From IMG/VR virus record IMGVR_UViG_3300023274_000046: a DNA stretch of 64,000 bases. The stretch is one strand, 5' to 3'. The DNA comes from a virus. Both the position numbers and the translations under genes were made by a program. This document shows, in pieces, positions 1-50,900 of this stretch (position 1 is the stretch's first letter; the number at the start of each line of letters is the position of its first letter). The notes below the pieces were generated by a model that ran no database searches, was not told the origin of the DNA, and saw only the letters and a program-made list of their open reading frames with translations.

Positions 1-1265
1 ATATGATAAATTTACACTCATTAGTGTGTGTTGAACTTCTACCAATGTTCATGTACCTGATACAATAAGAAAAAATTCAAAAAAGATATTTAAAGGAGCT
101 TTTTTATTTTTCTCGTTAACCCTGGGCAGCCAAGCGGTTAAATAAGAGGTGTTAATAAGTAATACCCTATTAATTCAGGTCTTATTAAAAGTTAATTGAT
201 TAATGAATATATTTTTTTTGGACTATATCTTCTCGAGGTAAATACCCCGAGGACTACGTATAGTCTCTGAGGATCCCCACTAAATTATTTGGTAATATTG
301 TGGGTTTCCTGCTGATGGTTAAAAATCAGACTTTATCACTGAGATTTAGCCTGCGCCAATCTCGAGTAGAATAATTGTAATAACTTCCCAGCATATAGTA
401 GTCTTTTTATTTCTCTACTTCCAGATTATTAAGATACGAGATAAAAAATATATCTACTGCACGCTTCGTAGCACAGAGTTAAAAATAATTACCATCCACC
501 CAACCCATCATAATTAGATTTTTGGTTATTATTTCTCATTAACGACAGAAAGGGTCGTCGGCTTATATAAAAAGTTTCTCTACCAGTTAAAAGCATAGGT
601 TCAACATATTCTAAAATTAAAAGAGAGAAGTTTGAATGATCGTATTTAAGTAAGGCTCTGGTAATAGGCATATTAAAATTTTGTTTGCTTTTTAAAAAAG
701 CCTTATTAAGATAATTTCTCATTCTAGAAGCTAAATTAATATAACTTACTACGTAAACATGTCCATTTACCTTGTTTATTAAACAGTAAACACCTGATTT
801 ATCTCTTTGTTCTTTTAGTATATTAACTCTATCTTCCTTAAAACTATCATAAACTTTTACAACCTTTAAATCTTGGATATTATCTTGGTTATAAGACTGC
901 TTATCACCAAAATTAGAATAAGATCGAGTTATGATAGCGTTTCCTAGCGGCACTCTAGTAAATTGGCTATACCGAGAATTCAGAATTAATTAATTTTTTC
1001 TTACTTGGACTATCTCTTCCCGGAGTAAAAATCGGGGACTGCGTATAGTCTCTGAGGATCCCGCTATATTTTTATTAAATATAATTAGGTTTCCTGCTGA
1101 TGGTTCAAAATTAGGCTTTATAACTGAGATTAAATAAAACTCTAGTAGCATAATTGTCAGAAGTTCTCAGCATATAGTAGTCAAATCTAAGAATCCATCT
1201 TCCACCCTTTTTATAAGGGTGGAAGATGGACGTAAATAGAGGGAGAGCTATCAGGTTGTTATTTA
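1..1265 (-). mobile_element. Group I intron cox1-1057 (partial), with two core copies
   Basis: Core motifs ccatcagcaggaaac / tcctcagagactatacg / gaaga(g/t)atagtcc occur at ~1005-1110 and again at ~215-325. Confidence 0.85.
489..953 (-). pseudogene. Truncated GIY-YIG homing endonuclease
   Basis: SGVYCLINKVNGHVYV...RMRNY...ALLKY...ILEY...RETFY; similarity is lost right after ETFYIS. Confidence 0.8.
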
Positions 1266-22567
<21,302 letters not shown>

Positions 22568-22879
22568 ACTTATAGATGATATCATTATATTTAGGTTGTA
22601 TTTATTGTTTTTATTGTTGTTAGATAAAATAATCGTACTTTTAAGTAAATTAGCAACGGGCATCGAATCAGAACAATGGATCATAAAAAAATTTAGAATG
22701 CCATGTATAATATTAAAAAAAAAGTTTTAATTACACTGTATAACTTCATTAAAAATTATAGCTACCTTGTCACTTTAGTTAGAATACCCGCAAAAGTTTA
22801 ATTTTTTTTGGGTTTTATATAATAATATTTTTAAGTTATTAAGATTATGAAATAATACATTACATATAAAAATATTATT

Positions 22880-24987: not shown

Positions 24988-27900
24988 CTAACCAGTAAAG
25001 TTAAAATCAAAAGTGTAAATTAATGTTGAAACTGAATAGTGAATAGCATCTAAAATTAGCCCAGGGTAGATACCTAACATTACCGTAGGTACTACTAAAG
25101 TTAATAACACAATGAACTCTCTTTTATTAACATCAGGAATATTAACTGTAAATTTGCTTGAATAGGATCCTCCAAAAGATATCTTTTGAAACATATAAAT
25201 AGTATAACCGGCAGAGAATATTATAGATAAGCTAGCAAATACCCCAAAAAATGAAGAACTTTCAAAAATTCCGTAAAGTGACATAAATTCACCTATAAAA
25301 TTTAATGTTAGAGGTGCTCCACAGTTTCCTAAACACAATATAAAAAATAATATTGCGAAAAGTGGCATAATTTGAGCCATTCCTCTATAGAAAGCTATTA
25401 ATCTAGTATGAGATCTATCATATAATATACCACCTGCACAAATAAATAGTCCAGGTGAAACTAGTCCATGAGCTATACCTAAATTTATACCCCCTTCAAT
25501 TCCTTGTATACTATTACTAAATACACCTAAAAGATACACTGCTGCATGAGAAACAGAGCTATATGCTATAAGTTCTTTAACATCTATTGTTCTTAAAGTA
25601 CTAACACTAGCATATATTATAGTTATAACCCCTATTAAATAAATAATATAAGTATATTCCATATATGCCTTAGGTAATATAGGTAAAATTAATCTTAAAA
25701 TACCATATAAACTTAATTTAAGCACAATAGCTGCTAATATAATACTTCCTCCTAAAGGAGATTCCACATGTGCCTTTAAAAGTCAGGTATTTAAAAAGAT
25801 TGTAGGTGTTTTAACCGCAAAAGCTATAAAAATACCATAAAATAAAAAAATTTGTGTAAAATAAATAAAATTTCTTTTAAATAAGGTATCAAAATCAGTA
25901 GTACTCATAATAGATGACATTGCTAAAATAGATAGTAATAAAAACAATGAACCTAACACATTAGGGTTTTCTTTAATTTTGAGTTACTTAAATTCATATC
26001 GGCTAACCGACAATTCACATAATAACTTTAAACTTTACGATTTAAATTCATATTGGACTTAATAGATTTTATGTTAGACAAACCTGCTTCTGATAAATGT
26101 TGTTTATCTTGTATAATCATAGCTACTTTTTTAAAGTCTTTATAGTCTGATTCTTTAACACCTTTAATATAAGATTTATCAAATAAAGGTATTATCTTTT
26201 CAAATATGTCTTTAAATTTTGTAACAACAAAATATACAGCAGACTGTTTTAAAACTAATTCAATTCTACCACATTTAAGGGTAGAAATTAATGATTTCAT
26301 AAGTTCTATATCTCTACTGTGTTGAACAATATGAAATTTTAACACTACAGCTTTACCTGTTTTAGTTGTTAAAGAATTACGTAAAGATACATGAAAACAC
26401 CCATCTCCACTAGCTAATCCTGCTATTCAATTAGGATCCATAACCCCCGTATTTGGAACTAAAGGTCTATTTACAGCTTTAATATCAGGAAAAAATAGAT
26501 TTAGTTCATCACTAAGACCTAAATTTAAAGCAGCTCTTATAGAAAGAATTTTATGAAAACCTTCCTTATTAAGATGGGCTTTAGTCTTAAGTAATTCTAT
26601 ACCATCTTTAAATAATTTATAATCCCCTCATTTTTCACTCAATAAGGGATATTTATCAAAATGTGATATTATTACTTGTAAATCAGCTAAAGATCTAACT
26701 AAATACTGTAAAGTAGTATCTCCATGTTTAGTAATTTTACCTACGCCAAAGAAATCACGTATAGTACATAATAAGTGGTAATCTTTTTTATGCATAGCAA
26801 TTTTATATATAGCTGTGATTTGATATCCCATTCTATATTCATTACTTTTGTGGAATCCTAATGCAAAAGTACCTTCTGCATCCGTTAAACCTGTAACAAA
26901 TCAAGGGTGTGGTAAATTATTATAGTCTTTATTTTGTTTATTTGACATTGTGTGCATAAACATTTTATTATGTGAATAGGAATGAATCGTTTTCCCAAAA
27001 ACTGATTTCTCAGCGATTAGAGTACACCTTACAAGATTCAAATTTCTGAACCTTGAAGAACCATCTACTCGTTGCTCTTTTACACCCTTATAATTAATAA
27101 AAGGATGACTTAGAACCACGGTTACCCATTTCGAAGAAAGTATTCTTCTCATCTTTAGTGATCTTACCATACCTTTAGTCATTAATAAAGCCGGTAAAAA
27201 AATTTCTCTTACTACTTTGGTTACTAGAGCTTTAGGGTTTTCCCGGTGTTTGGTTTTTTTACACTGTTGAGTCAATGTATATAAAAATAAGTAAAAACTA
27301 GCTTTTACTCTATTGTCAGATCCAAATACACCTATTAGAATAAATAAAGGTGGTAGTATACTTTCAAAAAAAATGTAAAAAAGTAAAATATCTAACACTA
27401 AGAAAACTGCCAATAGTAAAGTCTCTAACAATAGTATGATTATAAGATAAGTTTCTACATGTTTTGAAATAGATGTTCAATTAGATAAAATTGAAATAGG
27501 GATAATAATTGTTGTTAATAAGTTGGGTCGCAAGCATAGTCCCTTTAAAGTATTACTTTATTAAGGGTATTAAACTCGCTCCCACCGAACCGTACGTGCG
27601 ACTTTCATCGCATACGGCTCTCCAGAAACAGTAAACAAAGCGATTTTAGAATCGAAACAATACACTTAAGGAATTTATCCTAAGGTTCCCACCTCCAACC
27701 CTCTATGTAAACCTTATAACATAGATATTTTTATTAAACATAGGATCATTTGTCCTATCACCATTATAATTATACACTAAACTTTTTATACTTATTATTA
27801 AGATATGCTGCCTTTAAACTATCAGGTCTAGAAAATTTTATTTTCCCTAAACCCCTTACATTTACAACAATAGGTTTACCATATTTTTTAAATATTTTTG

Positions 27901-30900
27901 ATAAGGTTGACCTGTGTTTTGCGGCAAGTGTATGAGCTAAAGAGTACTCTAATATATATAACAATTCTCTTAAATCGGAACGATTAGCAGCCATATTATA
28001 AAAAACAAAAATTTTTGTTAGAAGGCTATTATAATTTTTAACTATATCATAATCAGATAAATGTAATAATTTTCCCACATATTTAGGATAACCTGTATCA
28101 TCTGCGAATCCTTTTTCAATAAGCTTAGATTTTAGATCCTTTAATGGAATTAATATTGTAGGAGTAATTATAACTTTGGGTGATGATAATAAAACATTAT
28201 TAACACCCCTAGAAGGTGAAGGCGATTTTAGAGAACTAGGTATTGACCATCTTAAATAATGGGTTAAAAATTTAGCATAACCTCTTCCTAGATGAATTAA
28301 CTTATTTTTATCTAACTCTAATTTTAATTCATCCTGAAGGAAAGTTCTAATTTGATCCTGGATCTTTTTGGCTAATTCTTCATGATTCTGTACATCTCCT
28401 TCCACACCTATCACCCATTCATTGGCAAACCTTACATAATATATCTTTAAAGGACTTAAAGCATAATTTTCTTTTAACTTATCAATAAACTCATCTAAAG
28501 GAGTTAAATAAAGATTTAATAAAATAGGAGAAATTATTCCACCTAAAAAGACCTTGTCCACATTCCTTCATACATAATCACGATAAATATCATAACAAGC
28601 ATTTACCAAATAACCTGCGTTTAAAAGTTTATAAAAGATCCCTATAAGGGTTCGATCAGGATTTAATTTTTTCTTAATTATATTAACTAATATATTATAA
28701 TGAATATTCTCAAAAACCTTATTAACCCTACCTTCTATAATTCAGGTTACTCCTTTCATCTTTTTAACTGAGTTTAATGCATGGTGAACAGATCTATTAG
28801 GTCTAAATCCAAAGTTTTGCTTATTAAAAATTTTTTTCTCACATTCAGATTCTATTAGTATTTTTATCGCGATTTGCAATATAATATCATTAAGAGATGG
28901 TAAAGATATTAATTTAGTAGTATGTGAAAACAACAAGTTACCTTCATTAGATTTTTTTATATAAATAGGTTCGCACCTATACGTCCAATTTTTTATACTT
29001 TCTATGATCACCTTCAACTTTTTTCCTGACTTATTATATAACGCCTCTTTATCTTCAACAGACATATACTTAATTAAATGTAAATTTGAGTCCATAAATT
29101 TAGAAACTTCATTATAAATAGAGCGCATACTTAATATAGTAATTAAATTTTTTGTACAAATATTATTAGCCCCGGCAGTCGCCTCCAAGCGGCGACTGGG
29201 GCCACGGGGATACCCGCCCCTAGGTGAATGATTATCTCCAGGTAAAAGACTAAGCTCTTTACAAGAGGAATTAATATAATTTTTACTGTTTCCTCGTTTT
29301 AGGAGTATTATTTTTACTGGCTTTTATTTTTAAAATCTTTTCTAACCCTTCTAAAGTCAAATGTTCCTTTTTAAACATTAATTCTGAGGCTTCATATCAA
29401 GATTGAAAATCTTTAGCTTTTATACCCATAATTGGATAATTTAGATAAAAAGGAATAATTTTATTTAAAATATCACTCAATCTAGTTACTACAAAATCCC
29501 CCCTACTTTGAACACCCTCTACAGTATAATACTTACCACAACCGAAATAATCTATAAAACTTTTTAACAAATTTTCATTTCGTAGATGCTGACTTAACTG
29601 AAATCTTAAATTTACCAAGTATCCTGTTTTAGTTGAAGAGTTCTTAACTATATTTATATTAAAACAACCTTCACCAGCAGTAAAACCTGATAATCAATGT
29701 GGGTCAGGTACTTGAGGGTTAACTATTTTATGAAATCTTGGTATTAAAATAAAATTAGGGAAAGCTTCTTTCAATATTGGAGTTAACCCATTGTTAAGAG
29801 AAGCTCTATAATTTATAATCTCTTGTAAACCTTCAGTATTTAAATGTTTACCACATTTTACCATCATTACAACTGACTTAAACAATTCAAAATCTCCACG
29901 TTTTTGAGTTTGTAATGGATATTTTTCAAAGTGCTCAATAATTTTATCTAATGTCTCAAGAGAAAATACTCTATAAGTCAAACAATTATCCTTAAGTCTA
30001 GTTAAAATTCCTTGTCCATCAAAATACGTTTGAATAATATTTAGTAGTTCTTTATCTTTAGGGTGAAGTCCAATTTGAAATACTGGTTGTACTCGCCAAC
30101 CTACTCTTGACTTCGGTGATTTATATATACTAACCATAAAACATCCTTCCGCATCAGAAAAACCAGTTAAAAACCAAGGATTTATATTACATTTTTTTGA
30201 TACCTCTGTACTCATATGTCTGATAACTAGAGTACTAAAATTTAAGTGTATTGAATTATTTGAATTATAATCAAATGTCTTTGCTCTCAATAAAGAAATA
30301 GAGTGTAAAGTCTTACCTCTACTTGCTCTATTCTTATTTGCATTGCTTCAGTTTTTCCAATAAATATCAATTTTTTTTTTATAAAAAAAAATGGGTGTCT
30401 GTCTTTTACGAAGAAAATACACACTAATACTTGATGATGGACACTTAAGAGCTTTTGCTGCTTCACTAATTGAACAATAAATAGTGCTAATACCTGTGAG
30501 GATGTCTAATACTTTTACTTTAATACTTGGACTACCCGAACCCTCAGGTTTTTTTTTACCATACCTCGGATTTTTTTCACCTGTTAAAGATTTAGAGAGC
30601 TTGGCCAGAGTTTGTTCACTAATTTCTCTCCCAAACATATGATTCATTTCTCCTATTTTTCCATACATCGGGTTTTTTTCACCTGTTAAAGATTTAGAGA
30701 TATTGGCCCGAGATTGATCAGAGTGTTTTAATCCTAGCAAGGAACCAGCAGTATTGAGTATATTGTAATGGGGATGAAAAAGATCCATAAAATATTGTTC
30801 CCTTTCGATACATTGAGTTGGTTCACAATATTCGAGAATCTCTAAATCAAATTTTGAATGACCATATTTTAAAAGTGCCTTATATATTCGCATATTATGT

Positions 30901-33041
30901 AACAATAAATAATTAATATTAAAATAATTTCTTAATCTTATTGATAAATTTACAGCACTTCCTATATAAGATTTTCCATTGACTTTATTTACTCAACGGT
31001 ACACTCCAGATTTCCCTGCATTTTCTTTTAAAATTATTAATTTTTTAGAATCAGCGTTAGCATAAAATTTTATAGGTACAGCAGCTGAAAATAAAACAAA
31101 TTCACCTGTAATGTCACCCATTATATAACTACTAGCATGAGTGGTTAAAACCAAAAATAAAATAAAAAGAAATAGAGTAAAAATTTTTTGTACTAATGTT
31201 CTTCTTGAGTTTAAGTGTATTGTATCATATGGATTATAACCGTATGTCTTTGGTCTTTTACGAATAAAGTGTAAAGTATTACCTGCTTTATTTTTTAAGA
31301 CTACTGTCTCCTGTGACCCTTCCAATAACATATGTGATTGTACTACGATCACTCCGTCCCCCTTTGAATTGGTATTAAATAAAGCACTTATTTTAGTAAA
31401 ATTTTCAAATTTTAATGCTCACAACTTCAAAGTCAAATTTTTGATACCTATTACTAGGCTTAGGGGATCCCCAGTTCCTAAGAAAAAGTCTGATATTATA
31501 TTTTTAGCTCACTGCTTTAAGGGTAAAAGCCCTTTTAGTAATCATGAACTTAAATATGCATTTTGCTTTTCTACACATTTATGATTACACTTCGTATGTT
31601 TCATTATTGCTAGACTCTGACTTAAACTACTGTAGCGTCGACAAAAAACATATTGACTATTGTAAGGTTTTTTTTGACCATTACTAAAATATTTAGATAT
31701 AGTTGCTGACTTTATGCCTAAAGCTAATGCAGCAGCAGATATAGAATCATATCTAGTTTTTATATTATTTTTAATATCTATTACTTCGACTGGTTGTGAA
31801 GATTTTCCAGCCCCTTGAGGTCTTGGTTTGCCAGCTTTAAAAATAGATATCTTTTCACGAGTTTCTGAAGAATGACGTTTTCCAAACCTTGGGCTTTGGC
31901 TTTCTGTTTTTCCAAACATTGGGTTTCTTTCCCCTGATAGAGAATTAGAGATTTTGGCTCTAATTTCATCACTATGTTTAAGCCCAAACATTGGGTGTCT
32001 TTCTCCTGATAGAGAATTAGAGATTTTGGCTCTAGTTTCATCACTATGTTTAAACCCTAAAGATGAACCAGCTGTTTTTAATATATTATATTCAGGATTT
32101 AATTTATCTATATAATATTGTTCACGTTTTAATAAATCCGCCGAATCACAATACTCAAGGATTTCAAGAGTAAAGTTTGAATACCCCTTTTTTAATAATG
32201 AATTATAAATCATACTTTTACCCTTTTCAATTTTTTTGACTAAGAAATAAACATTAAAATAATCTCTAAGTCTTTTCCCTAAATTTTTACTACTTCCTAT
32301 ATAAGTTTTACCGTTTATTTTATTAACTCATTGATAAATACCACTTTTATTTTGATTATCTTTTAGTATTTCTAACTTTTGAGTATCGGCATTTTCATAA
32401 AATTTAGGTGAAATATTAGAAAGGTCTTTAGAGGCTCCGCTAGTGGTTGAATATTTTACGCTTTGCAAAAAACCACTTTTTGTAAAATTTGGATATAGTC
32501 TCATTTTTTGTTGTAGAGTAAATAAAGCAGGTCTAGCAAATGAATGAATTTTCGTATCAAGTATTTTCGAAGTCAGCCTATAGTTCTGTAACAGCATTAT
32601 AATAAAAGCTTGAATATAAATTACCTTGCCCACCAAATAAAATTTATACTTAATCTTATTGAGGACTTTACTAACATGCTTCTTTCCTCTAATCATTTCG
32701 ATATCAAGTAAGTTAGTCGGTTTACATAACATTAGTTCAGTTACGATTCTTAGTGGAACGGGCTTTTTCTTAGTTAAAGGGCGCACAACAAAATATATAG
32801 ATAAACCATCTATACCTAAAAAAAAGTTAAAATAACTAATTTCATGATATTCTTGTACAAATTGAAATTGATTTAGACTAAAATCAAATAAAATAAAAAT
32901 AATTAATGATAAAAATAAATTAAGTATAGACGCAGTTAAACCTATAAATTTAATATTCGTTAACGAAACCCCTAAATCTTTATTAACCAATATCACAAAA
33001 ACACCTATTATAGGAATTAAAAGCAAAGATAATAATAACAC
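24988..33041 (-). CDS. nad4: NADH dehydrogenase subunit 4. Exons 32787-33041, 27275-27521, 24988-25958; start is GTG 33041 or TTG 33059
   Basis: GIDGLSIYFV-LLTT..., FFESILPPLF, FLYTL-LGSLF, WLLKAHVESPLGGS, LIAYSSVSH; exons total 1473 nt. Confidence 0.95.
25959..27274 (-). mobile_element. Group I intron 2 of nad4 (IC2-like) with LAGLIDADG ORF (~26028-26990)
   Basis: Core aaagagcaacgagtagacgg / taaggtgtactctaa; WFVTGLTDAEG and WIAGLASGDG motifs. Confidence 0.88.
27770..29188 (-). CDS. Degenerate RT / maturase (YADD replaced by FANE; domain X kept; no endonuclease domain)
   Basis: NFGFRPNRSVHHAL, GGIISPILLNLYL, YYVRFANEW, HTLAAKHRSTLSKIFKKYG; continuous in code 4. Confidence 0.85.
29283..32786 (-). 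CDS. Exon-fused polyprotein ORF: GIY-YIG + NUMOD3 repeats, second GIY-YIG + NUMOD3, double-motif LAGLIDADG
   Basis: SGIYQWVNKINGKTYIGSS, SGVYRWVNKVNGKSYIGSA, WFLTGFSDAEG, WLSGFTAGEG; all inter-ORF junctions were checked and are stop-free in code 4. Confidence 0.82.
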
Positions 33042-33611
33042 CCCTGAAAAAGAAAGCAAATACCTCTGTAACGCATAAAGGATAAATTATCGCTCACGCT
33101 TTTTTTTATGAACACCGTGATTATCTCAAGGTTAATAGACTATAAAAAAAAAAGTAAATGAATATAGACTATAAAAAAAAAAGTAAATGAATATAGTATA
33201 TAAATCGATAACACGGTTGAAATTACACTAAAATAGTAAATAGTAAAGGTAATAGTTTAAATAGTGTTGGCAGACCGAATCAAGTATGCATAGCTATATT
33301 ACTATACACTAATACTTATTTATACTTAGATGTTTTCATGGAACAGGAGACTTTTTGGAGGGAATGAAAACATCAAGAAACAGGCAGACGGAAGGAACTC
33401 GAACGGAAGAAGAAAACATAATGGAAGGCTCTGAAGAAAGAGAAAAAAACAAAGGATGAGGAAAGATTTAAAAAACAGACACATACGAGGGAAAATTTCA
33501 AACGCAATGAGGGAAACTTTCTTCCAACAAGGAGTTCTGAAGAGCCGCTTCAGAAAACCTTTTCACTAGACCACAAAAAAAAGATATAAGATACTCATTC
33601 AATATGAGGAA

Positions 33612-33653
33612 GGCGCACGGCGCACGGCGCACGGCGCACGGCGCACGGCGCAC
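33612..33653. repeat. (GGCGCAC)6 GC-rich tandem repeat
   Basis: Read directly. Confidence 0.95.
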
Positions 33654-33712
33654 CTCCTTCAATTATCATCATTTTAAGTCTGTGAATCAGGAAACTTTTT
33701 ACCATAAAAAAA

Positions 33713-35493
33713 CTAGAGTCCGAATCTTTCTAACATATAAGATTCGGACGATGTAACACGAGAGTTTATTCACCTAACATTAGATTTTCTCTTTTTGGGA
33801 CTAAAAAAATTGCTTAATGTTCGTATTGCTTTAGAACTATAATTTCTTATGGTTAGTTCTGTTCCTCGCAAATTCTCGCGATATAGCCAGGAATTCTCCC
33901 TTCCTATCAATCTAAAATCTTGAACAATGAAGTCATCACTTCATGTACCAATATATAAACGAGAGATTGTTAAGCCCGCATACTTACTATTAAAGAGCTT
34001 TATTCAGGGTTTCGAATATCTTCATCTCTTTAGATAACCTCCTTTTATTAACTCTATTCTCTTACTATCTGTTAGAAGCTCTATATGAATCATATTTAAT
34101 AACTCATCTCTTAAACTAGAAGAAATGACTAGATTAGCCCCTTTCCTTGTTTCAGAATAAATCTTATCCTCAAACGGGTCATAAACTATACCCAGTCACT
34201 TTAATTTTGAGATTCACTTAGAGTCCCTTTTTATTCATAAGGTTTTGGTTTCAGATAACTCCATACGCTTTTCTTTATCACCTCTTATTTCAAAGGGGAC
34301 ATCACTATAAAATATAGGATCATCGGCATAGGATATACTAGATTGTTGAGTTAAAAAATCCTTAAGATTTAGTATAGACTGTACTGGGGACATTGGGAAA
34401 CCTTGGGGTAACCCTTCATCGTATCCCCAATTTAAAGGGGTCTCTTCTGGAGATATATTCTTTGAAGAACGGGGAGGGTTGAGATAAATCTCCTCAATCA
34501 TGAGGGCACTGGAGTCACATTATCCTGAACAGGGTTATACTGCAGACCTAAAAAACGCAGTTTGGATATAACCTTCGGATCCTTCCTTCCTTCAGGAAGC
34601 ACCAAACTTTTTATATTACCACCTTCTACCGGGAGGGAAAAGAAATAGAAAAGGTCCAGATATTCTAAACGTTTTAATATAAGTTCAGTATCGGAAACTA
34701 ATTTAACCTCTCGGGGAATTATAAAATTACTACGATTGATCTTTCCTATTCAAGATAACATATATTCACTTACTCCCATGGAAGATAGCACACCTGCCAC
34801 TTCCGCCGGTCTAACCGAAGGGAAAAATTGTTTTAGATCTGTTTCTAATATTCAAGGTTTATCAAAAACTTTAGTAATTAGCTCTTGTCATGCAGTTAAA
34901 CATCCGCGGCCTGGTATAAAACCATGTTGACTTGGTAAAAAATTCTCTCAGCTAAATTGGACTAGGAAATTATTTATCATATGCCCCATCATACGTCAGG
35001 GTACAGAAGGTACACCTAACGGACGCCATTTGTTTCTATCTCAGAAATATACCCGCTTAAAGTCTATACAGTGAACTATCCTATTTAATTCACTATCTGT
35101 ATCGAATGATTTAAGCAATTTTTTAAAAGATTTCACTAGAGACTTAACCTGTCCTAGTGTGAGGTCTCTAGATCAGTTAGGGTGCATTTTAATGAAAGCG
35201 CTTAATCTAAAGACTAAGGATTTTTGAAGTAAAGATCTTACTACATTTCAGTACTTCACAGGGTCTGATCTCAAACGATCCAGACGTTTCAATTGATATT
35301 TCATATATTTATTCATTTTAGTATTTTCACCCCGCGTGATCCTTTTTCAAGAGACCCTCACTTTTAGTCCATAAAGATCCTTCCACAGCTTGTCATAAGG
35401 ATTTGTAAACAACTCCATTTGATCGCAATTAGGTATTCCAGTCCAACCATATAGGTTGGGTTTTATCCTCTCCTGCGGAGCTCCGCAGGAGCT
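33713..35493 (-). pseudogene. Retroplasmid-like (Mauriceville/Varkud-type) reverse transcriptase with one frameshift near 34500
   Basis: WRPLGVP, QHGFIPGRG, ETDLKQFFPSV, GLPQGFPMSP, SYADD, LKWLGIVYD, SRLYIGTW...QDF. Confidence 0.85.
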
Positions 35494-37884: not shown

Positions 37885-40109
37885 GTTCGACGTGAGGCGG
37901 ATAATAACAATGTGGTTCGAATCCACTAAATCAGTTCTCGATTTAACACTATTTGCAGATGCATAGTTAGTAATAATATGTATTAAGTTGCAAAGACAAT
38001 GTAGCCTGTTAAATGTAATATTCATTTAAAGGAGCTAGTGTGACGTGAGATATGGGTAGCGAAAGCAAAGGCAACAATGACGTTTCGATACACTACAACT
38101 ATAAGGGTAGGAGAGGGTTTGACATACTAACCCTTTCAGAGAACCAATATAACCCTTCGGAGTAAAGTTGTCACCCTAAGTCTTACTAGGAAGTGTTATT
38201 ATTTGAACACGGTAAGCCCTTATCTAACCTAATCTTTTGTACGTTTACAATAGGAAGGAGGTGTCTTACGATAAAAAGTAGGCATAGCAAGGTGAGAGGT
38301 AAAGGAGAAGTTAAAAAGCGAATGCCAATGGTCGTAACTTCGATTGAAGTAAGTTTACGGTATTGGATAGAGTCATATTAAATAAAATTATTAAAAAAAC
38401 AGTTAGTTTTTAAGGCCCTTTTTGTACCCTCCATATGGTATTATTTAGGATACTGACCTTTAGTTAGGATACTGACCTTTAGTTAGGCTTTAATGGTAAT
38501 TCAGGGGCGGCTTTTCATGAAAGCAAGTATATGTAAGGTGCCAGCACCTCCTTATTTTTATACTCTTAAGGATACATTTTATGCAATACTAAGAGGTTGG
38601 AATCATTGGAAATTTTTCCCTATTGTGATATGCGATAGTCAAATCAGGATTGTGCCAACTAAGATTTTAATAAGGGTGGTTGAGTCACAAGTTCAGCCGA
38701 GTATCCTTAGTTATGCATTTAAATATATCTAAGGACCTTATCTTGTATAGTTGTTCGGCTACAATCCGAAAGGCGTTGTTGAGAAAGAAAAGCTCTCAAG
38801 CTGCAAGACCCGCTAATACTCAAAAGTTCTAAAAATTTTGATGGAACTATCAAGTTACCACATTGTGTGATTCTTTTCAGTGATTCATTTATATATAATA
38901 CAGAAGAAGCTACAACAATAATGATGATAAACAAATTAATTAAAACTAATAACTTAGTTATACATAATAACCGAATATATTCTAGAATGATTCAGACTTA
39001 TTTTAAACTTGTTTTAAATCCATGATACATTACCGGAATTGTGGACGGAGAGGGAAGTTTTGGAGTTTTTGTTAAAAAAGACCCCAAACGTTCGCTAGGT
39101 TACCTTATAACTTTAAGTTTTGAAATTGCTTTAGATAAAAAGGATTTAAATCTTTTAGAAGGATTGCAAGCTTATTTCGGAGTAGGGGGGATATATAAAC
39201 ATTCTGGCGATATGATGCGATATAAAGTAAGTTCTATTCAAAATATAGCAAAAGTTATTATACCACATTTTGATAAGTATCAATTGGTAACTCAAAAAAG
39301 AGTGGATTTTGATATATTCAAGCGTATAGTGTGTATTATAGCCAAAGGACCTGTTTCTAGAGAAGATTTGCAAGAAATTGTAAATTTAAAATCTTCTATG
39401 AATTTAGGTTTATCAGATTCATTAAAAGAATCTTTTCCGAATACTAAAGAGTTAGCTAGACCTCTAGTAAAGTATAATGGTATTCCAGATCCAAATTGAT
39501 TAACTGGATTTTCTGAGGCTGAAGCATGTTATTACATTAGTATTTACGATTCACCTCAATCAAAATTAGGAAAGGCAGTTCAATTGGTATACGTAGTAAC
39601 TCAGCATATTCGTGATGAGGAGTTACTGAAGGGGTTGATAGATTACTTTGGAGGATGTGGAAAATACAGTAAAAGAAAAGATGGTGGGGATTTTAAAGTA
39701 CTTTCTATTAAGGATATAACCACTAAAATAGTACCATTTTTTGATGCGTATCCTTTACAAGGGGTAAAATCTTTAAATTTTAGAGATTGAAAACTAGCAG
39801 TTGAAATAATGGAGAATAAAGGTCATTTGACTGAAGAGGGGTTAAAGAAAATACAAACTATAAAGATGAGGATGAATACAAAAAGATTTAGTTAGAAAAA
39901 AGACAAAAAGACTACTTAAATTTATTTAATATATAACTCGCACCGAAAGGTGGCTGACTTAACATGCGGTGGAATTAGCACATATTAGTGTTGCGGCGAT
40001 GGCTGCTGGGATATTATATATCCTTAGATTCTGCTTGAGCGTAGTGCGATGAAAGTTGCACGCTACGTTCTTAGAGGGGGAAAATCCGAGAGGATCTACC
40101 TATCTCAAC
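37885..40109 (+). mobile_element. Group II intron at mS952 with LAGLIDADG ORF (38921-39895)
   Basis: Starts GTTCGAC; domain V gagcgtagtgcgatgaaagttgcacgctacgttc; ends CTCAAC; ITGIVDGEG and LTGFSEAEA motifs. Confidence 0.9.
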
Positions 40110-40490: not shown

Positions 40491-41843
40491 GATATGTGTT
40501 TTGGGAATACACTAAATTGGCTAAAACTATCAAACTCCGGGGACACCCTAAAACTTATGAAACCAAGCATTATTCAAAAGGATATTTGCGGCTGAACTAA
40601 TTATTCAGGTACGGTAATATATCATAAGATGAGTGAAAACGAAATGGGTTATCGCGGATCTAAATCAGATGTTAGTTTAATATCTGTAAAAGAGCAACGA
40701 GTAGACGGTAGTTGACCTCTTTTTATAAAAGCCAATCCAAAAAATATAAAAAGAAGTTTAAGGTGTACTCTAATGGGCTTTGAAAGAAGTTGCCGAAATT
40801 TCGGTCTATTTTCTAATATTATTGAAAGTAGTCAGATCAAAATCCCTACTAAGGTATTATTAAGTAAAAATTATTCTACCTTATCTATCCTAGACCCTTG
40901 ATTCTTAACAGGGTTTTCAGATGCTGAAGGTTCTTTTATAATTTCTATTTATAAAGATAATAACAGTAAATTAAAATGAAGAATTTCGGCTTATTTCTCT
41001 ATCCATATCCATAGTAAAGATGTTTCATTATTGGAGATGATACATAATACTTTTGGAGTAGGAGTTCTTCGTAAAAATAATGAGAACACTGTATTATTTA
41101 GAGTTAGTGACATACAAGAACTGCAAGTGATTATAGATCATTTTAAAAAATACCCTTTAGTTAGTGCTAAGTATTCTGATTTTTTATTATTTGAACAATG
41201 TTATAATATCATAAAAAAAAAAAGAACATTTAACTCAAAATGGGTTTAAAAGAATTATAGAATTACGTGCTTCACTAAATAAAGGTTTATCCCCTGAATT
41301 AAAAGAAGCTTTCCCTAACAACAATCCAGTTGTTAGAACAGAATATGAATTTAAAGGTATACCAGATCCTAATTGAATTTCCGGGTTTGCTACTGGAGAT
41401 TCTTCATTTAGAGTTTCTATTGAAAAAAGTTCAAGTAAAATAGGTAAAAGAGTAAGATTGTGTTTTGATACTTGTTTACACATTAGAGAGAAAGAACTTT
41501 TAAAAGGGATAGCTAATTATTTTAGTTCATATGATTCTAATCTTACTAAAGAAATGTCAATTCAATGTTCTGAAAAAAATAATACTTGTTTATTGCAATT
41601 TAGGAATAATTCAGACATAGAAAATAAAATTATACCTTTTTTTAAAGAATATTCTATAAAAGGTGTGAAAGCATTAGACTTTAATGATTGATGCAAAGTC
41701 GCTGAATTAGTAAAGAATAAAGAACATTTAACTATAGATGGTTTAAATAAAATCACAGAAATTGCAAATGGTATTAACTTAAATAGAAAATGATAAAGTT
41801 TAAGAATTTTTTTATAATTACTAGGTTAAATTTGATTTCCATG
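40491..41843 (+). mobile_element. Group I intron ~mS1224 (IC2-like) with frameshifted LAGLIDADG (~40860-41795)
   Basis: Junction gggct|atagacgtg; FLTGFSDAEG motif; frameshift at the poly-A run near 41220. Confidence 0.85.
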
Positions 41844-41864: not shown

Positions 41865-43273
41865 ACCTTTTGGCTTAGGACGCTAAGAAGGTGGGTGAAA
41901 CTATCAAACTCCGGGGAACTCCTAAAGATTCTGATACCAAACCACGTGCTAAAGTACGTAGGCGGATGAATTAATCACTCATGTACGGTAATAAGTCAGA
42001 ATATAATCGAAAGAGCAATGGGCAATCGCGGATCTAAGTCAATAACAGTTTTACAATCACCTACAACATACAAAACTGTTATTGTAAAAGAGCAACGAGT
42101 AGACGGTAGTTGACGTAGTAATTCTTTATTACGTTTAAGGTGTATTCTAATAAGTTTCGAGAGAAATCGAGTAGTCAATGTCCTTTCTAAGGGGCAAATT
42201 ATATTAAAACGCTGTTTTACAACCGGTATATCTAATATACCCTCATCCTTACCTACTTCTGTAGAATCTCGCGCCATTAATCCTTGATTTGTTACGGGAT
42301 TCACGGACGCGGAGGGATGTTTTATTATCCAAGTAAGAAAAAGAGGTAATTACTGATCTTGCGAGGCTAGATTTGTTATTGCTTTACATGAAAAAGATAG
42401 AATGCTACTTGAACAAATTCAAAGATATTTTGGAGGGGAAGGTAGTATTTTAAAACATGGGAAAGATAGTTGTCAATATGTAGTAGGTTCTTTAGAACAA
42501 ATCACTAAAGAAATTCTTCCTCATTTTGATAATTATCCTTTAATATCTAAGAAGTGTGCGGATTACCTTTTATTCAAAGAGGCTGTAAATATAATGTTTG
42601 CTAATAAGCAAGCCTCCTTGGATATTACAAGAGAAGAATTTATAGCAAAGATTGTAGCAATAAGAGCATCTTTAAATTTAGGTTTATCACCCGAATTGAA
42701 ATCTAGTTTCCCTAATGTAATTGCCGTGCCTCGTCCAAACGTTGAAGATATTACGATACGTGATCCTCATTGAGTAGCAGGGTTTACATCAGGTGAAGGT
42801 TGTTTTTTAATTAAGACAAGCGTAACCAAAATGACTAAGGTAGGGCACAGTGTTCAATTACTATTTCAAATAACTCAACATGAGCGTGATGAGCTATTGA
42901 TGGAAAGTCTAGTAACTTATTTTGGATGCGGTGTGTTAGTAAAGGATTCTAAAAATAATGGTACTAGAGTGTATTACCGTGTAACTAAATTTTCAGATAT
43001 TCGTGATATTATCATACCGTTATTCCAAAAATACAGCATATTAGGAGTAAAAGTTCACGATTTCGAGGATTGATGTAAAGTATGTAATATCTTAGTAACA
43101 AAGGGGCATCTAACTAAAGAAGGGTTGGATAATATATTAAAAATAAAAGCAGGAACTAATAAAGGTAGACACGAATAATACTATTATCCGTATCGAGCTG
43201 GAAAAGGATTTGTTTTTTTTACACGGGTGTAATAATGTGAATATAGTGGACCTATGATAAAATTGGCGAATTG
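41865..43273 (+). mobile_element. Group I intron ~mS1247 with LAGLIDADG ORF (~42180-43180)
   Basis: Junction ataagcct|agacaaaagg; FVTGFTDAEG and VAGFTSGEG motifs. Confidence 0.85.
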
Positions 43274-43555: not shown

Positions 43556-44050
43556 AACCAAAAAGAAATTGAGACCTTCTTTTTATTTTTCTAAAAATAC
43601 CAAACTCCGGGAATACCCTAAAGCAGTTTATGCCAAATCTACATATGAAACAATTAAAGTAGATGGCCTTTCGTAATGGATAAGGGTATGGCAATAAGGT
43701 AACTGATTAGTCGAAAGATTGAATGGGCTACCGCGGATCTAAGTTGACTCTATTCTCACTATAGGATATAATCTCAAGTATGATTATGTATAGTAGATAG
43801 ATCATAAAAGAGCAACGAGCAGATGGTGTTTGTAGGTCCACTGGTTACTTATAGTGTAACCGAAAACGGAAATAATTAGTTTTTACCAAATAAATTAGTA
43901 TTGACTTTATTTCCGAAGTCTAGGTTCTGAATAGTTCCAAGGTGGAATATTAAGGTATGCTCTAAATAAAGTAAAAATACTTTGATTTACTTCGTCTCAG
44001 ACCTAAATACAAGGTAAATACTTTGTACATGGTCGAAGAAGTATTAACTG
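43556..44050 (+). mobile_element. ORF-less group I intron (IC2-like) just before rns helix 45
   Basis: Core caaactccgggaatacccta / accgcggatctaag / aaagagcaacgagcagatgg / aaggtatgctcta; removal restores aagtcgaaatacggttcg. Confidence 0.75.
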
Positions 44051-47953: not shown

Positions 47954-50900
47954 ATGTTGTATATTGTGAATGAAATGACATTTAGTGGATATAATGTATA
48001 TAGTTTAAACTTATTATATATTATTGCTATATTATTAGGTATACTAGTTATTATTAGCAAAAACCCTATTGATATATTATTTGGGGTAAACTATCAAATT
48101 CCGGGGACACCCTAAAGCTTATGATACCAAGCTGTAGTTGAAAGACTATTAGTGGATGAATTAATCACTCATGTATGGTAAAAAGTCATAAGATGATCCT
48201 TTATATTAGCAAAGGAGAAATAGGCAATCGCGGATCTAAGTCAGTAACATAATAATTACTGTAAAAGAGCAACGATTAGATGGTAGTTAGTAGTGGTATT
48301 TAAGTAAATAATATTACTACTTAAGGTATAATCTACAAATTAAAAAAAAATATGTGATTGTAAATAATTTCAATCTAAACTTACTTACATTTTATTCTGA
48401 TGTAGACTCAGGAGGTGTCTCCTACTCTAATCATAAATATATTGTATTACAATCCCGTGTACCCCGACCTCACCAATTAAATGATCTCTTGATAAGGTCA
48501 TATCATACTAAATCTTTAAGTAGCTTACGTACACCCTTAGAGTTAAATCCTTGATTTATAACTGGATTTACTGATGGGGAAGGTTCATTCTCATTAAGTG
48601 TTAGAGATATAGATAAGTATACTAAAAAAGGAAAAGTACTCTATGTATTTTCAATAATATTACATAAGAAAGACGAGGGTATATTAAGAAGTATCTCATC
48701 CGCAGTTATTACGCTATTGCTTGGTTATTACCGTAAATTTAAAGATAGATGTAGTTTTGATTTAGAATGAGCTTTACATAACCCACCTAAACCATACGCA
48801 TTTACTCACTTACCTTTACAGAGTAAACTTCAACATCCACATGCGGGTTATTTTTGATGAATGATGCACAGACGTAATGTGCATGCACACGAATCTAACG
48901 CACCTACTGAGGAACATATTCAGAGGTACTATCAGAAATACATTGAACCATTGACCCCCGAACAACAAAATAATTTTGATAGAAAATTAATACGAATAGA
49001 TGATAAATTTTTGGAGAAAATACGAGGTAATGGAATGCAGCAGTGTCCGAATCATGGTATCAAAGATGTTCAAGGTAGTAATTGTAAAGGAACATATATT
49101 TTTGACCAGTATGAGTTAAATCCTCTTATGAATATTATGCATAATGACGAAATTCAAAGCATACTCTTTGTAGTAAACGGAGAGTGGGTTATTTGCTTAA
49201 GATACCTAATTATGTATTTTATGATTAAAAATGGATATAATTTTAAAACTATATGATCATTTATAAGTTCGAATATTATTTATGTTATAAAAATTCTTGC
49301 GAATAACGTTAGTAGTATAATTTTTCTCTATTTAGCTATTATATCCAGTATGGTATTTTTATTAATTAGTGGTAACTATTTAGATGCTAGCTTTGTTAGT
49401 TATGACGTACTTAAAGCTTGAGAACTTTACTTCCAAAATAGTGCTAGTCCACCTAATAATATTTTTTCAGGTTATAGAAATTATTTACAATATTCAACTA
49501 ATTATCCTCTAATACTATCTTCCAACCCCGGGGGGGTTAGAAGAAATAGATCTTTTTCTACCTCTATTCTCCCCTATAACTCCGTTACAAGGGGAAGCTT
49601 ATTAAATCTTAAAGAAATACCTCGTAGGAAGTTTTATTGCTCAACTTCATTAAATAGGGATTTACTTAGTGATGAAGATTTTTACGAATGGTTACGTGGT
49701 TTGATAGATGGTGAAGGTTGTTTTTATATAAGAAAAAACTTGATCCGAGAGAATTCTCCATTCACATTTTTATTCTTAATTAATTTACACATTGATGATA
49801 AGGCTGCGCTTGACTATATTCAAATGAGGTTGAATATCGGTAAGGTCGATGTTATCAAAGATGGAAAAATGAGTAGTTTATCAGTTGTGAAAAAAACAGA
49901 GATAAAAGTACTAATTGACATTTTAAGTAAAGTTCCTTTGAATACAACTAAAAGGTTAAATTTCGAAGACTGAAAGCAAGCTTATGAGCTTTATTTCGGT
50001 GTAGATAAAATAAGTGATAGAGGAAAAACTATCCTGGAAAAAATAGATGAGATTAAGAAAGGTATGAACACAAGAAGACAATATGAAACACATAAATTTG
50101 AGTTTCATATCACGAAATATTGATTGTTAGGGTTTATAGAAGGAGAAGGTTCATTCTCTATATCGAAAGAACGACTTCAACAGATATTTTTCCTGGGGCA
50201 AGTGTCTAGCGAGAGACCTTTATTAGAAAAAATCACAGAATATTTAGAATATTATAGTGAGGGTTCTATCTCTTATTCCACTAACAATAAGTCCATATTC
50301 GCTATCTATGATAAAACTGAGGATGCTTTACGTAACCGTAAGCCCTTTTCTAGTTTACATTGCGCTAATCAAGAATATTTACTTAAGGTGCTAGTGCCGC
50401 TATTAGATTCATTAACCTGACAAACCAAAAAATTTATGGATTTTAAGGATTGATCAGCAATATTGGAGATAAAAGCTGCCGGTCTTCATCTTAGTTCCCA
50501 AGGTAAAAAAGTGATCCAAAAAGTAATTGCGCAGATGAACAATTACCGTTTGTCAACTAATCCTGATAAAACAAACATAGATAGAAACTTATTGTATTCT
50601 GAAATTGCAGATTTATTAGATCAACCTTCTATTGAAAGAGTAGCCAAAAGACCGGTTAATCTAATAAATGAAAAAGGTGAATTGTTTAAGTCTTTTCCAT
50701 CAATATACGGCTGTGCCAAATTTCTGGGTATAAGTAAATATAAGATTAATACAGCTATAAAACTAAATAAAGCGCTGATTTATGACGAAAAAGTATATTT
50801 TGTGCGTGAGGACTAGGAGTAGGTAAAATATATACACATGGAAAACAAGGAGTACAATTCCGCGTTGAATCTAAAAAAGAGTTATGTATTTTAATAGAAC

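Follow-up and report, generated by a model that had tools for sequence, protein, structure and literature searches.

The IMG/VR virus record IMGVR_UViG_3300023274_000046, analysed here over its whole stretch of 64,000 nucleotides (the window), carries on its minus strand the gene nad4, interrupted by a group II intron that holds several homing-endonuclease genes and a maturase gene derived from a reverse transcriptase (RT). The window can be assigned to fungal mitochondrial DNA using genetic code 4, and its source to a member of the Pleosporales, because its C-terminal Nad4 exon shares 84-88% identity with the Nad4 proteins of Corynespora, Periconia, Curvularia and Coniothyrium. The locus was studied by Pfam and Rfam searches (at gathering thresholds and at E values up to 1), blastn, comparison with PDB structures, ratios of nonsynonymous to synonymous substitution (dN/dS) and stop-codon shuffles (2000).

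Exon 1 of nad4 (32787-33041, minus strand, as are all features below unless stated otherwise) was delimited by translation, with a frame open from 33086 and an end at 32787 set by a spliced RNA contig, and exon 2 (27273-27521) by the same contig, X1 record 1, and by translation. The first exon ends with ...GIDGLSIYFV at 32787 and the second starts with LLTTIII... at 27521. Between them, sequence and the spliced contig define a single group II intron of 5265 nt (27522-32786), which begins with GUGCG (32786-32782) and ends with AC (27523-27522), in agreement with the 5' GUGYG and 3' AY ends of such introns. Domains V and VI (27522-27622), in which the catalytic end of the ribozyme is intact, are recognized by the Rfam model RF00029 (Intron_gpII) with 69.8 bits against a gathering score of 40, and a bulged A at 27528, read from the domain VI sequence and from the Rfam alignments of two relatives (L015 and L016), is the probable branch point. 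The Rfam models of domains I-IV matched neither the nad4 intron nor these two cassette-poor relatives, whether at the gathering score or at E values up to 1. The metatranscriptome contig X1 record 1 (2428 nt) joins 32787 to 27521, skipping exactly 5265 nt of the window, and further on connects 27273 with 25956, so that the next intron is removed as well. A second contig from the same run contains a permuted junction leading from domains V/VI (27620 to 27527) straight into the first bases of the intron (32787 side); it looks like cDNA across a lariat branch, marking lariat-type excision by branching in vivo. An earlier note on this DNA, made from its letters alone, had placed one 5.3-kb group II intron here, and the Rfam match to domains V and VI, the borders and the 5265-nt excision from RNA all agree with it.

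Read with translation table 4, the frame from 33086 to 29283 runs for 1267 codons without TAA or TAG, 1252 of them counted from a GTG at 33041. This GTG is the probable start codon, V16 of the frame being aligned with the Met of relative L016. Eight TGA codons in the frame are read as Trp under code 4, and two of these align to conserved Trp residues of aHE15 (36of_A, the top PDB match), a LAGLIDADG relative of solved structure. The frame passes through Nad4 exon 1, a GIY-YIG module, a second GIY-YIG module and a LAGLIDADG module before it terminates at a TAA (29285-29283), the stop codon of the LAGLIDADG gene; in this same frame Pfam recognizes GIY-YIG with NUMOD3 and NUMOD1 two times, followed by a double LAGLIDADG_1. 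The earlier note had described just such a table-4 frame, of ~1,250 codons over 29283-33041 and free of TAA and TAG until 29283, in which a Nad4 exon is fused to three endonuclease modules from two families. The stop-free translation and the Pfam matches uphold this description, and 33041, where its span began, coincides with the probable GTG start.

The part of the frame that serves as RNA only (domains I-III, hereafter the linker) has no stop codon in the exon frame in five lineages, as against 19-24 stop codons in each of the other frames, and none of the 2000 shuffles produced a stop-free linker. Its dN/dS is 0.63-1.12. The linker is evidently kept open, yet it is not conserved as protein. 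We infer that the whole frame is translated as one polyprotein.

The first GIY-YIG gene, with NUMOD3 and NUMOD1, forms cassette B (31598-32557, borders +/- ~7 nt; 960 bp, 320 codons). Its catalytic domain (32085-32345; residues 248-334 of P0001; PF01541), aligned to I-TevI (1mk0/1ln0), retains the GIY, YIG, Arg, Glu and Asn positions. The core of cassette C, with the second GIY-YIG, NUMOD3 and NUMOD1 according to Pfam, lies at 30417-31010 (residues 693-890). Both GIY-YIG copies of the window, as well as a third gene found in other strains (cassette A, see below), are matched by PF01541, PF07460 and PF07453. Motifs and NUMOD tails together indicate that the GIY-YIG proteins of the window fit homing endonucleases of the I-TevI type, with predicted activity. 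The third endonuclease (29283-30215; Pfam E 2.8e-53; repeats from residue 973) is a double-motif LAGLIDADG protein of the I-OnuI type, with the motifs LTGFSDAEG and LSGFTAGEG and a full-length match to PDB chains of the I-OnuI family (~E 1e-80). All three endonucleases of the window have intact catalytic motifs. A recent tandem duplication as the origin of the two GIY-YIG copies was ruled out, their identity being just 46%. On a smaller scale, cassette B contains an internal tandem duplication of ~80 bp (31912-32064, 92.6% identical), which repeats a NUMOD3 unit (HSDE.RAKISNSLSGER.PMFG). In the three-GIY-YIG haplotype L006 (~9000-9100), the first LAGLIDADG motif reads GFSGAEWCF instead of GFSDAEGCF, possibly the onset of decay.

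Downstream of the endonucleases, and in a frame different from theirs, lies the RT-derived maturase open reading frame (ORF; 27770-29128; RVT_1 and Intron_maturas2; P0007, 452 aa). Its ATG at 29128 is located 155 nt past the LAGLIDADG stop codon, with the frame open from 29323. In relatives L009, L014 and L019, the maturase start instead overlaps the upstream stop by 17-23 nt. A GC-rich palindromic insert of 52 nt (29169-29220) lies between the LAGLIDADG stop and the maturase ATG, where the protein alignment of the relatives has a gap; it looks like a lineage-specific mobile GC cluster. When aligned with the intact RT of the window's cox1 intron and with eight relatives, the maturase ORF has FANE in place of YADD (28418-28429) and has lost the Asp of motif A, where it reads IEGRVNKVFE (28709-28738). 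The relatives have FADE, FANE or FADS for YADD, so that the catalytic Asp residues of an RT are not preserved, and some family members have a shortened motif 4. The HNH tail is absent from all relatives compared, the ORF stopping ~100 residues short of the HNH portion of the cox1-intron protein. The maturase (X) domain is kept (PF01348, E 9.8e-20), including an invariant LAHTLAAKHR block. Judging from these alignments, the nad4 RT is catalytically dead and retained as a maturase, its X domain being under purifying selection. The degenerate FANE maturase that the earlier note had seen behind the endonucleases is thereby corroborated by the RT alignment, in another frame than theirs.

Comparison of the nad4 intron with the window's cox1 group II intron by blastn yielded D5 and short chance matches only; since it failed for domain mapping, domains I-III were mapped by a consensus fold of the cassette-free cores of five lineages. 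In this fold, cassette B occupies the terminal loop of a domain I hairpin (31589-32573), whose arms are 32573-32568 (ACUUCG) and 31594-31589 (CGAAGU). This hairpin stands directly upstream of another whose loop carries a candidate exon-binding site 1 (EBS1), AGCAAAA (31561-31567), detected by a script scan and the consensus fold and complementary to UUUUGUU, the final 7 nt of exon 1. Alleles with and without B differ at 32569 (C/T) and 31593 (G/A), which amounts to a compensatory exchange between a C-G and a U-A pair, linked to B on two sequence backbones. This B-linked pair fits a scenario in which B was transferred along with a short co-converted tract, rather than being deleted twice independently.

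The codons for KGDGVIVV (31341-31364), conserved at the RNA level in the five lineages, deserve particular attention. The earlier note had taken this peptide for a remnant of the RT leader lying between the two GIY-YIG genes. The consensus fold contradicts this view: as modelled, KGDGVIVV is the in-frame translation of the conserved 3' strand of domain II, J2/3 and the 5' strand of domain III, in their normal place, and it resembles GGDGVVVV of the cox1 intron because both translate conserved RNA of the domain II/III junction. Downstream of it lies the 5' strand of the basal helix of domain IV (31302-31307), which pairs with 27633-27628, just 5' of domain V. The helix closing domain IV has 9 bp, and its complementary strands AGAAACAGU and ACUGUUUCU are kept in the five lineages. 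The first GIY-YIG gene (B) thus sits upstream of KGDGVIVV in a domain I loop and the second downstream in domain IV, which contains cassette C, the LAGLIDADG gene and the RT/maturase ORF. Of the elements of the fold, the basal helix of domain IV and several domain I hairpins are conserved, and one compensatory pair was found.

At the base of domain IV, a segment that includes a hairpin (31224-31280, NTLHF...YGYNPYD) recurs as a degenerate second copy at 30261-30314. L015, L016 and L009 have one copy of it, ahead of the endonuclease gene, and the window has two, one on each side of the second GIY-YIG. This arrangement suggests that cassette C and the LAGLIDADG gene are competitors for a single site, united by recombination.

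An identical maturase (P0007) is encoded on many contigs, and the strains concerned differ in cassettes A and B. An alignment of four variants revealed three indels, next to 4-17 substitutions across 4666 shared bases. At 32772/32773, 13 nt past the start of the intron, the window has an empty site for cassette A, bordered by a 7-bp repeat (TAAGAAA); L003, L005 and L006 contain there a GIY-YIG/NUMOD1 gene (Pfam) of 1053 bp, or 351 codons. Cassette B is absent from L003, L005 and L008, and like A it is bordered by a 7-bp direct repeat. The third indel, which L003 and L006 have and the window and L008 lack, consists of 18 bp in frame between a T run and an A run near 30383, at the C-terminal end of cassette C. 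All three lengths (1053, 960 and 18 bp) are multiples of three. All four combinations of A and B were found, and the exon-fused frame is open in each of them, with 947, 1267, 1304 or 1624 codons. When the window is compared with L009, B has a dS of 0.14 and the maturase one of 0.83; B has therefore moved between lineages recently. The serial in-frame invasions at which the earlier note had guessed gain support from this cassette polymorphism among strains. A 960-nt skip in RNA contigs, from 31593 to 32554, was also considered as removal of B by RNA splicing, and was rejected: long DNA contigs have this form too, the run has no coverage inside B, and there are no valid intron borders.

A wider family is formed by relatives with 48-66% identical maturases. 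L015 contains a GIY-YIG gene of type C only, L009/L010 contain B together with the LAGLIDADG gene, and LAGLIDADG alone was found in L016, L017/L018, L019 and the P0017 contig, the last of these known from gene calls. Three of them (L017/L018, L019 and the P0017 contig) stop short of the 5' end, so that cassettes at their A or B sites are possible. The LAGLIDADG-plus-maturase arrangement is therefore probably the older state, to which GIY-YIG cassettes were added. The segment at the A site varies in length among relatives, from 0 to 39-49 nt (L009 and L015), 1053 nt and ~2700 nt (L014). In L014, from a related species with a 7.4-kb nad4 intron, the ~2.7 kb at the A site (293-3330 of that contig) hold a group I-like core, with the core box at 549-573, and two extra LAGLIDADG ORFs, probably forming a true group I-in-group II twintron. 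Values of dN/dS are 0.43 for B (against L009), 0.21-0.37 for C, 0.27-0.31 for the LAGLIDADG gene and 0.24-0.29 for the maturase.

We consider it likely that the nad4 group II intron of this Pleosporales fungus has turned from a retroelement into a carrier of homing-endonuclease genes. In yeast, exon-fused intron proteins are translated as a precursor from pre-mRNA and then processed by a protease. Ribosomes starting on unspliced nad4 pre-mRNA could likewise translate the frame from end to end into a precursor, to be cut afterwards by mitochondrial proteases. The GIY-YIG enzymes of A and B would cleave cassette-free copies of the intron and spread via double-strand-break repair, and the LAGLIDADG enzyme, cassette C, or both, could mobilize either the entire intron or the cargo of its domain IV. 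The LAGLIDADG stop codon would have uncoupled the RT from exon-driven translation, and the uncoupled RT would then have decayed to a splicing-only maturase read from its own ATG. A more specific scenario, to which we give slightly less than even confidence, is that the exon-fused frame constitutes a shared translation track colonized serially by unrelated cassettes. The GIY-YIG genes would home into intron loops as parasites of a parasite, and only stop-free cassettes with a length divisible by three would survive, because a stop would silence every downstream cassette; the last stop would have cut off the RT. The family would then represent a transitional stage from retroelement-type to endonuclease-type introns, one not found in a 2026 survey of 753 introns (Liu et al., 2026; PMC13190283).

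Several observations weigh against the interpretation of the intron as an endonuclease carrier with a shared frame. The borders of domains I-III depend on a five-sequence consensus fold with little covariation, and those of cassette C are known from cross-species comparison only. The 7-bp repeats bordering A and B would equally fit microhomology-mediated insertion or deletion. The permuted RNA junction lies 1-2 nt away from where A27528 and G32786 should be linked. Only in a strain without cassettes A and B were this lariat-type junction and the spliced product observed. As both RNA contigs stem from that strain, we infer the splicing of the window's B-containing form. Finally, internal Met codons precede each endonuclease (residues 195, 656 and 958) and would permit separate initiation. 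These codons, 20-50 codons upstream of each nuclease domain, could mean that the endonucleases are independent genes using their own starts, and that the common frame is a relic without present function, left from an ancestral exon-fused RT leader and from recent insertion. The lack of protein-level constraint on the linker would be expected in this case, and some copies are decaying, as seen in the altered first LAGLIDADG motif of L006 and in the 18-bp indel. Nevertheless, we regard such a relic as unlikely: the linker is stop-free in five lineages that are ~10-20% apart in nucleotides, the two other frames carrying 19-24 stop codons each and no shuffle being stop-free, the frame is preserved by all three indels, and the fusion to exon 1 is retained by every cargo combination and in every lineage with a complete 5' end. 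Moreover, exon fusion is the usual translation route for fungal mitochondrial intron ORFs (PMC8260586).

Twintrons offer another explanation, in which the endonucleases would sit in nested group I (or other) introns that are spliced separately, the long frame never being used. Group I introns are indeed where the GIY-YIG and LAGLIDADG genes of fungi are normally found, annotations place the nearest relatives of cassette C among the endonucleases of group I introns, and L014 has a group I core motif with two LAGLIDADG ORFs at the very site of cassette A. The Rfam group I model, which had no match anywhere in the window at the gathering score or at E values up to 1, says nothing on nested introns, because it missed every one of the window's evident group I introns. 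However, only ~240 nt of A and ~180 nt of B fall outside the protein domains, into which a typical group I core would not fit, and no border within the 7-bp ambiguity of either cassette offers a U before the 5' splice site plus a terminal G. A, B and the third indel are stop-free and of lengths divisible by three, and cassette-free forms occur as DNA, on contigs of 16-87 kb. A conserved 25-nt group I core box is present at seven sites of the window, including nad4 intron 2, but at none within 27522-32786, and the RNA contigs are unbroken over 29349-30290, 30398-30904 and 31107-31494, without internal joints. As rare forms are lost from contigs, this last evidence carries less weight for cassette C and the LAGLIDADG gene than it does for A and B. 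Taken together, these data make separately spliced nested introns quite improbable. Even less credit, practically none, can be given to an artefact of assembly or sequencing, in which homopolymer errors or a chimera would keep the frame open. The long T and A runs at ~30365-30392 are prone to indel errors, but contigs from three different ENA/JGI samples (L001, L002 and L007) are 100% identical to the window over 26000-34500, these runs included, and a fourth (L004) is 99.95% identical. Such identity over 8.5 kb in three independent metagenome assemblies shows that the frame is not an assembly error. In addition, metatranscriptome contigs of four runs match the window at at least 99%, and the only variant difference at the homopolymer site is the in-frame 18-bp indel. 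Of the two developments that the earlier note had named as fatal to its reading, neither has thus materialized: no indels or stops break the frame, and nested group I introns find no support, A and B having no valid borders and the core box and inner RNA joints being missing.

Other introns of the window and its relatives provide some context. The 25-nt box, which is translated as KEQRVDGS in ORF-fused introns, occurs at 13593-13617, 19233-19257, 27058-27082, 40687-40711, 42085-42109, 43805-43829 and 48262-48286, and these seven boxes probably mark group I intron cores unreported by the Rfam group I model. The box at 27058-27082 belongs to nad4 intron 2 (25957-27272, 1316 nt), whose LAGLIDADG ORF is fused to exon 2; the metatranscriptome contig in which intron 1 is spliced shows precise removal of this intron too. 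In L003, L005 and L006, an extra ~1.73 kb with LAGLIDADG ORFs at window position 27347/27348 represents an optional intron of nad4 exon 2, without counterpart in the window.

Group II introns with LAGLIDADG genes have been described previously (Toor and Zimmerly, 2002; Mullineux et al., 2010), and the 753 introns surveyed recently form 13 families at rns, rnl and cox1 positions, all analysed members being without recognizable RT/maturase (Liu et al., 2026; PMC13190283). The nad4 intron resembles them in its double-motif LAGLIDADG gene inside a group II ribozyme and in the position of the cargo, in domain IV or in a domain I loop, where it was apparently recruited as a module. In contrast to the 13 families, its host site is in nad4, after ...SIYFV, a gene unnamed in that paper; the RT/maturase is kept (RVT_1 and Intron_maturas2, 27770-29323) in all relatives; one to three GIY-YIG genes are carried; and all cargo shares one exon-fused frame. 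A classical LAGLIDADG group II intron is found in the window itself, in rns (37926-40109, plus strand; Rfam D1D4-7 at 37926-38073, ORF at 38723-39895, D5 at 40035-40109). Its endonuclease is 43% identical to the nad4 LAGLIDADG protein, and at this identity a recent copying of the nad4 gene from the rns intron was ruled out. A LAGLIDADG gene, of the double-motif kind, and an RT ORF also occur together in domain IV of another group II intron in a fungal mitochondrial nad gene, the complex group IIA intron i5 of Ceratocystis nad2 (Mayers et al., 2021; PMC8208691). It differs in that its RT is interrupted by another intron and its description is limited to a figure legend; GIY-YIG genes, a common frame, cassette polymorphism and RNA evidence are not reported there. 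Powdery-mildew introns with hybrid GIY-YIG/RT domains (nad5-672; PMC8767329) or LAGLIDADG/GIY-YIG domains (PMC8260586; PMC8767329) are similar in uniting GIY-YIG with RT, or two endonuclease families, in one intron ORF, and exon-fused ORFs are common among them. These are catalogue entries without structural mapping, none of which combines a maturase with three or four endonucleases in a single intron or shows gain and loss at the population level.

Multi-ORF group I introns, with endonuclease genes moving without their intron, were reportedly the subject of work by Sellem and Belcour in 1997 and by Mota and Collins in 1988. The atp6-572 and cox1-212 introns of Ophiostoma are multi-ORF group I introns that vary among strains (PMC12308204). 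The parallel lies in the occurrence of one or two endonuclease ORFs per intron among strains and in the mobility of ORFs apart from the ribozyme, but in nad4 the host ribozyme is a group II intron and the cassettes enter a frame shared with the exon and with each other. Exon-fused RT/maturase ORFs are a feature of the yeast cox1 group II introns aI1 and aI2. The cox1 group II intron of the window (19952-22726) translates the same GDGV box at its domain II/III junction. Unlike these introns, the nad4 intron uses its exon-fused frame to deliver endonucleases, the frame stopping before the RT, and its RT is catalytically dead and without an HNH domain. In a 2020 survey, no genome covered had a GIY-YIG gene within a group II intron. 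What is new here, with partial precedents, is a group II intron with an RT-derived maturase and a polymorphic endonuclease stack in one exon-fused frame.

The prevailing view is that group II introns move as retroelements, and the LAGLIDADG carriers among them, few in number, are reported to be without any trace of an RT. In the nad4 family, as many as three GIY-YIG genes coexist with a LAGLIDADG gene and a maturase of RT origin. Its natural series of forms with and without A and B bears on how endonuclease genes enter ribozyme loops without halting splicing, on whether exon-fused translation permits their expression, and on how a retroelement becomes a DNA-homing element. The cassettes themselves are predicted to encode candidate new site-specific nucleases, the natural empty target sites of which are already defined.

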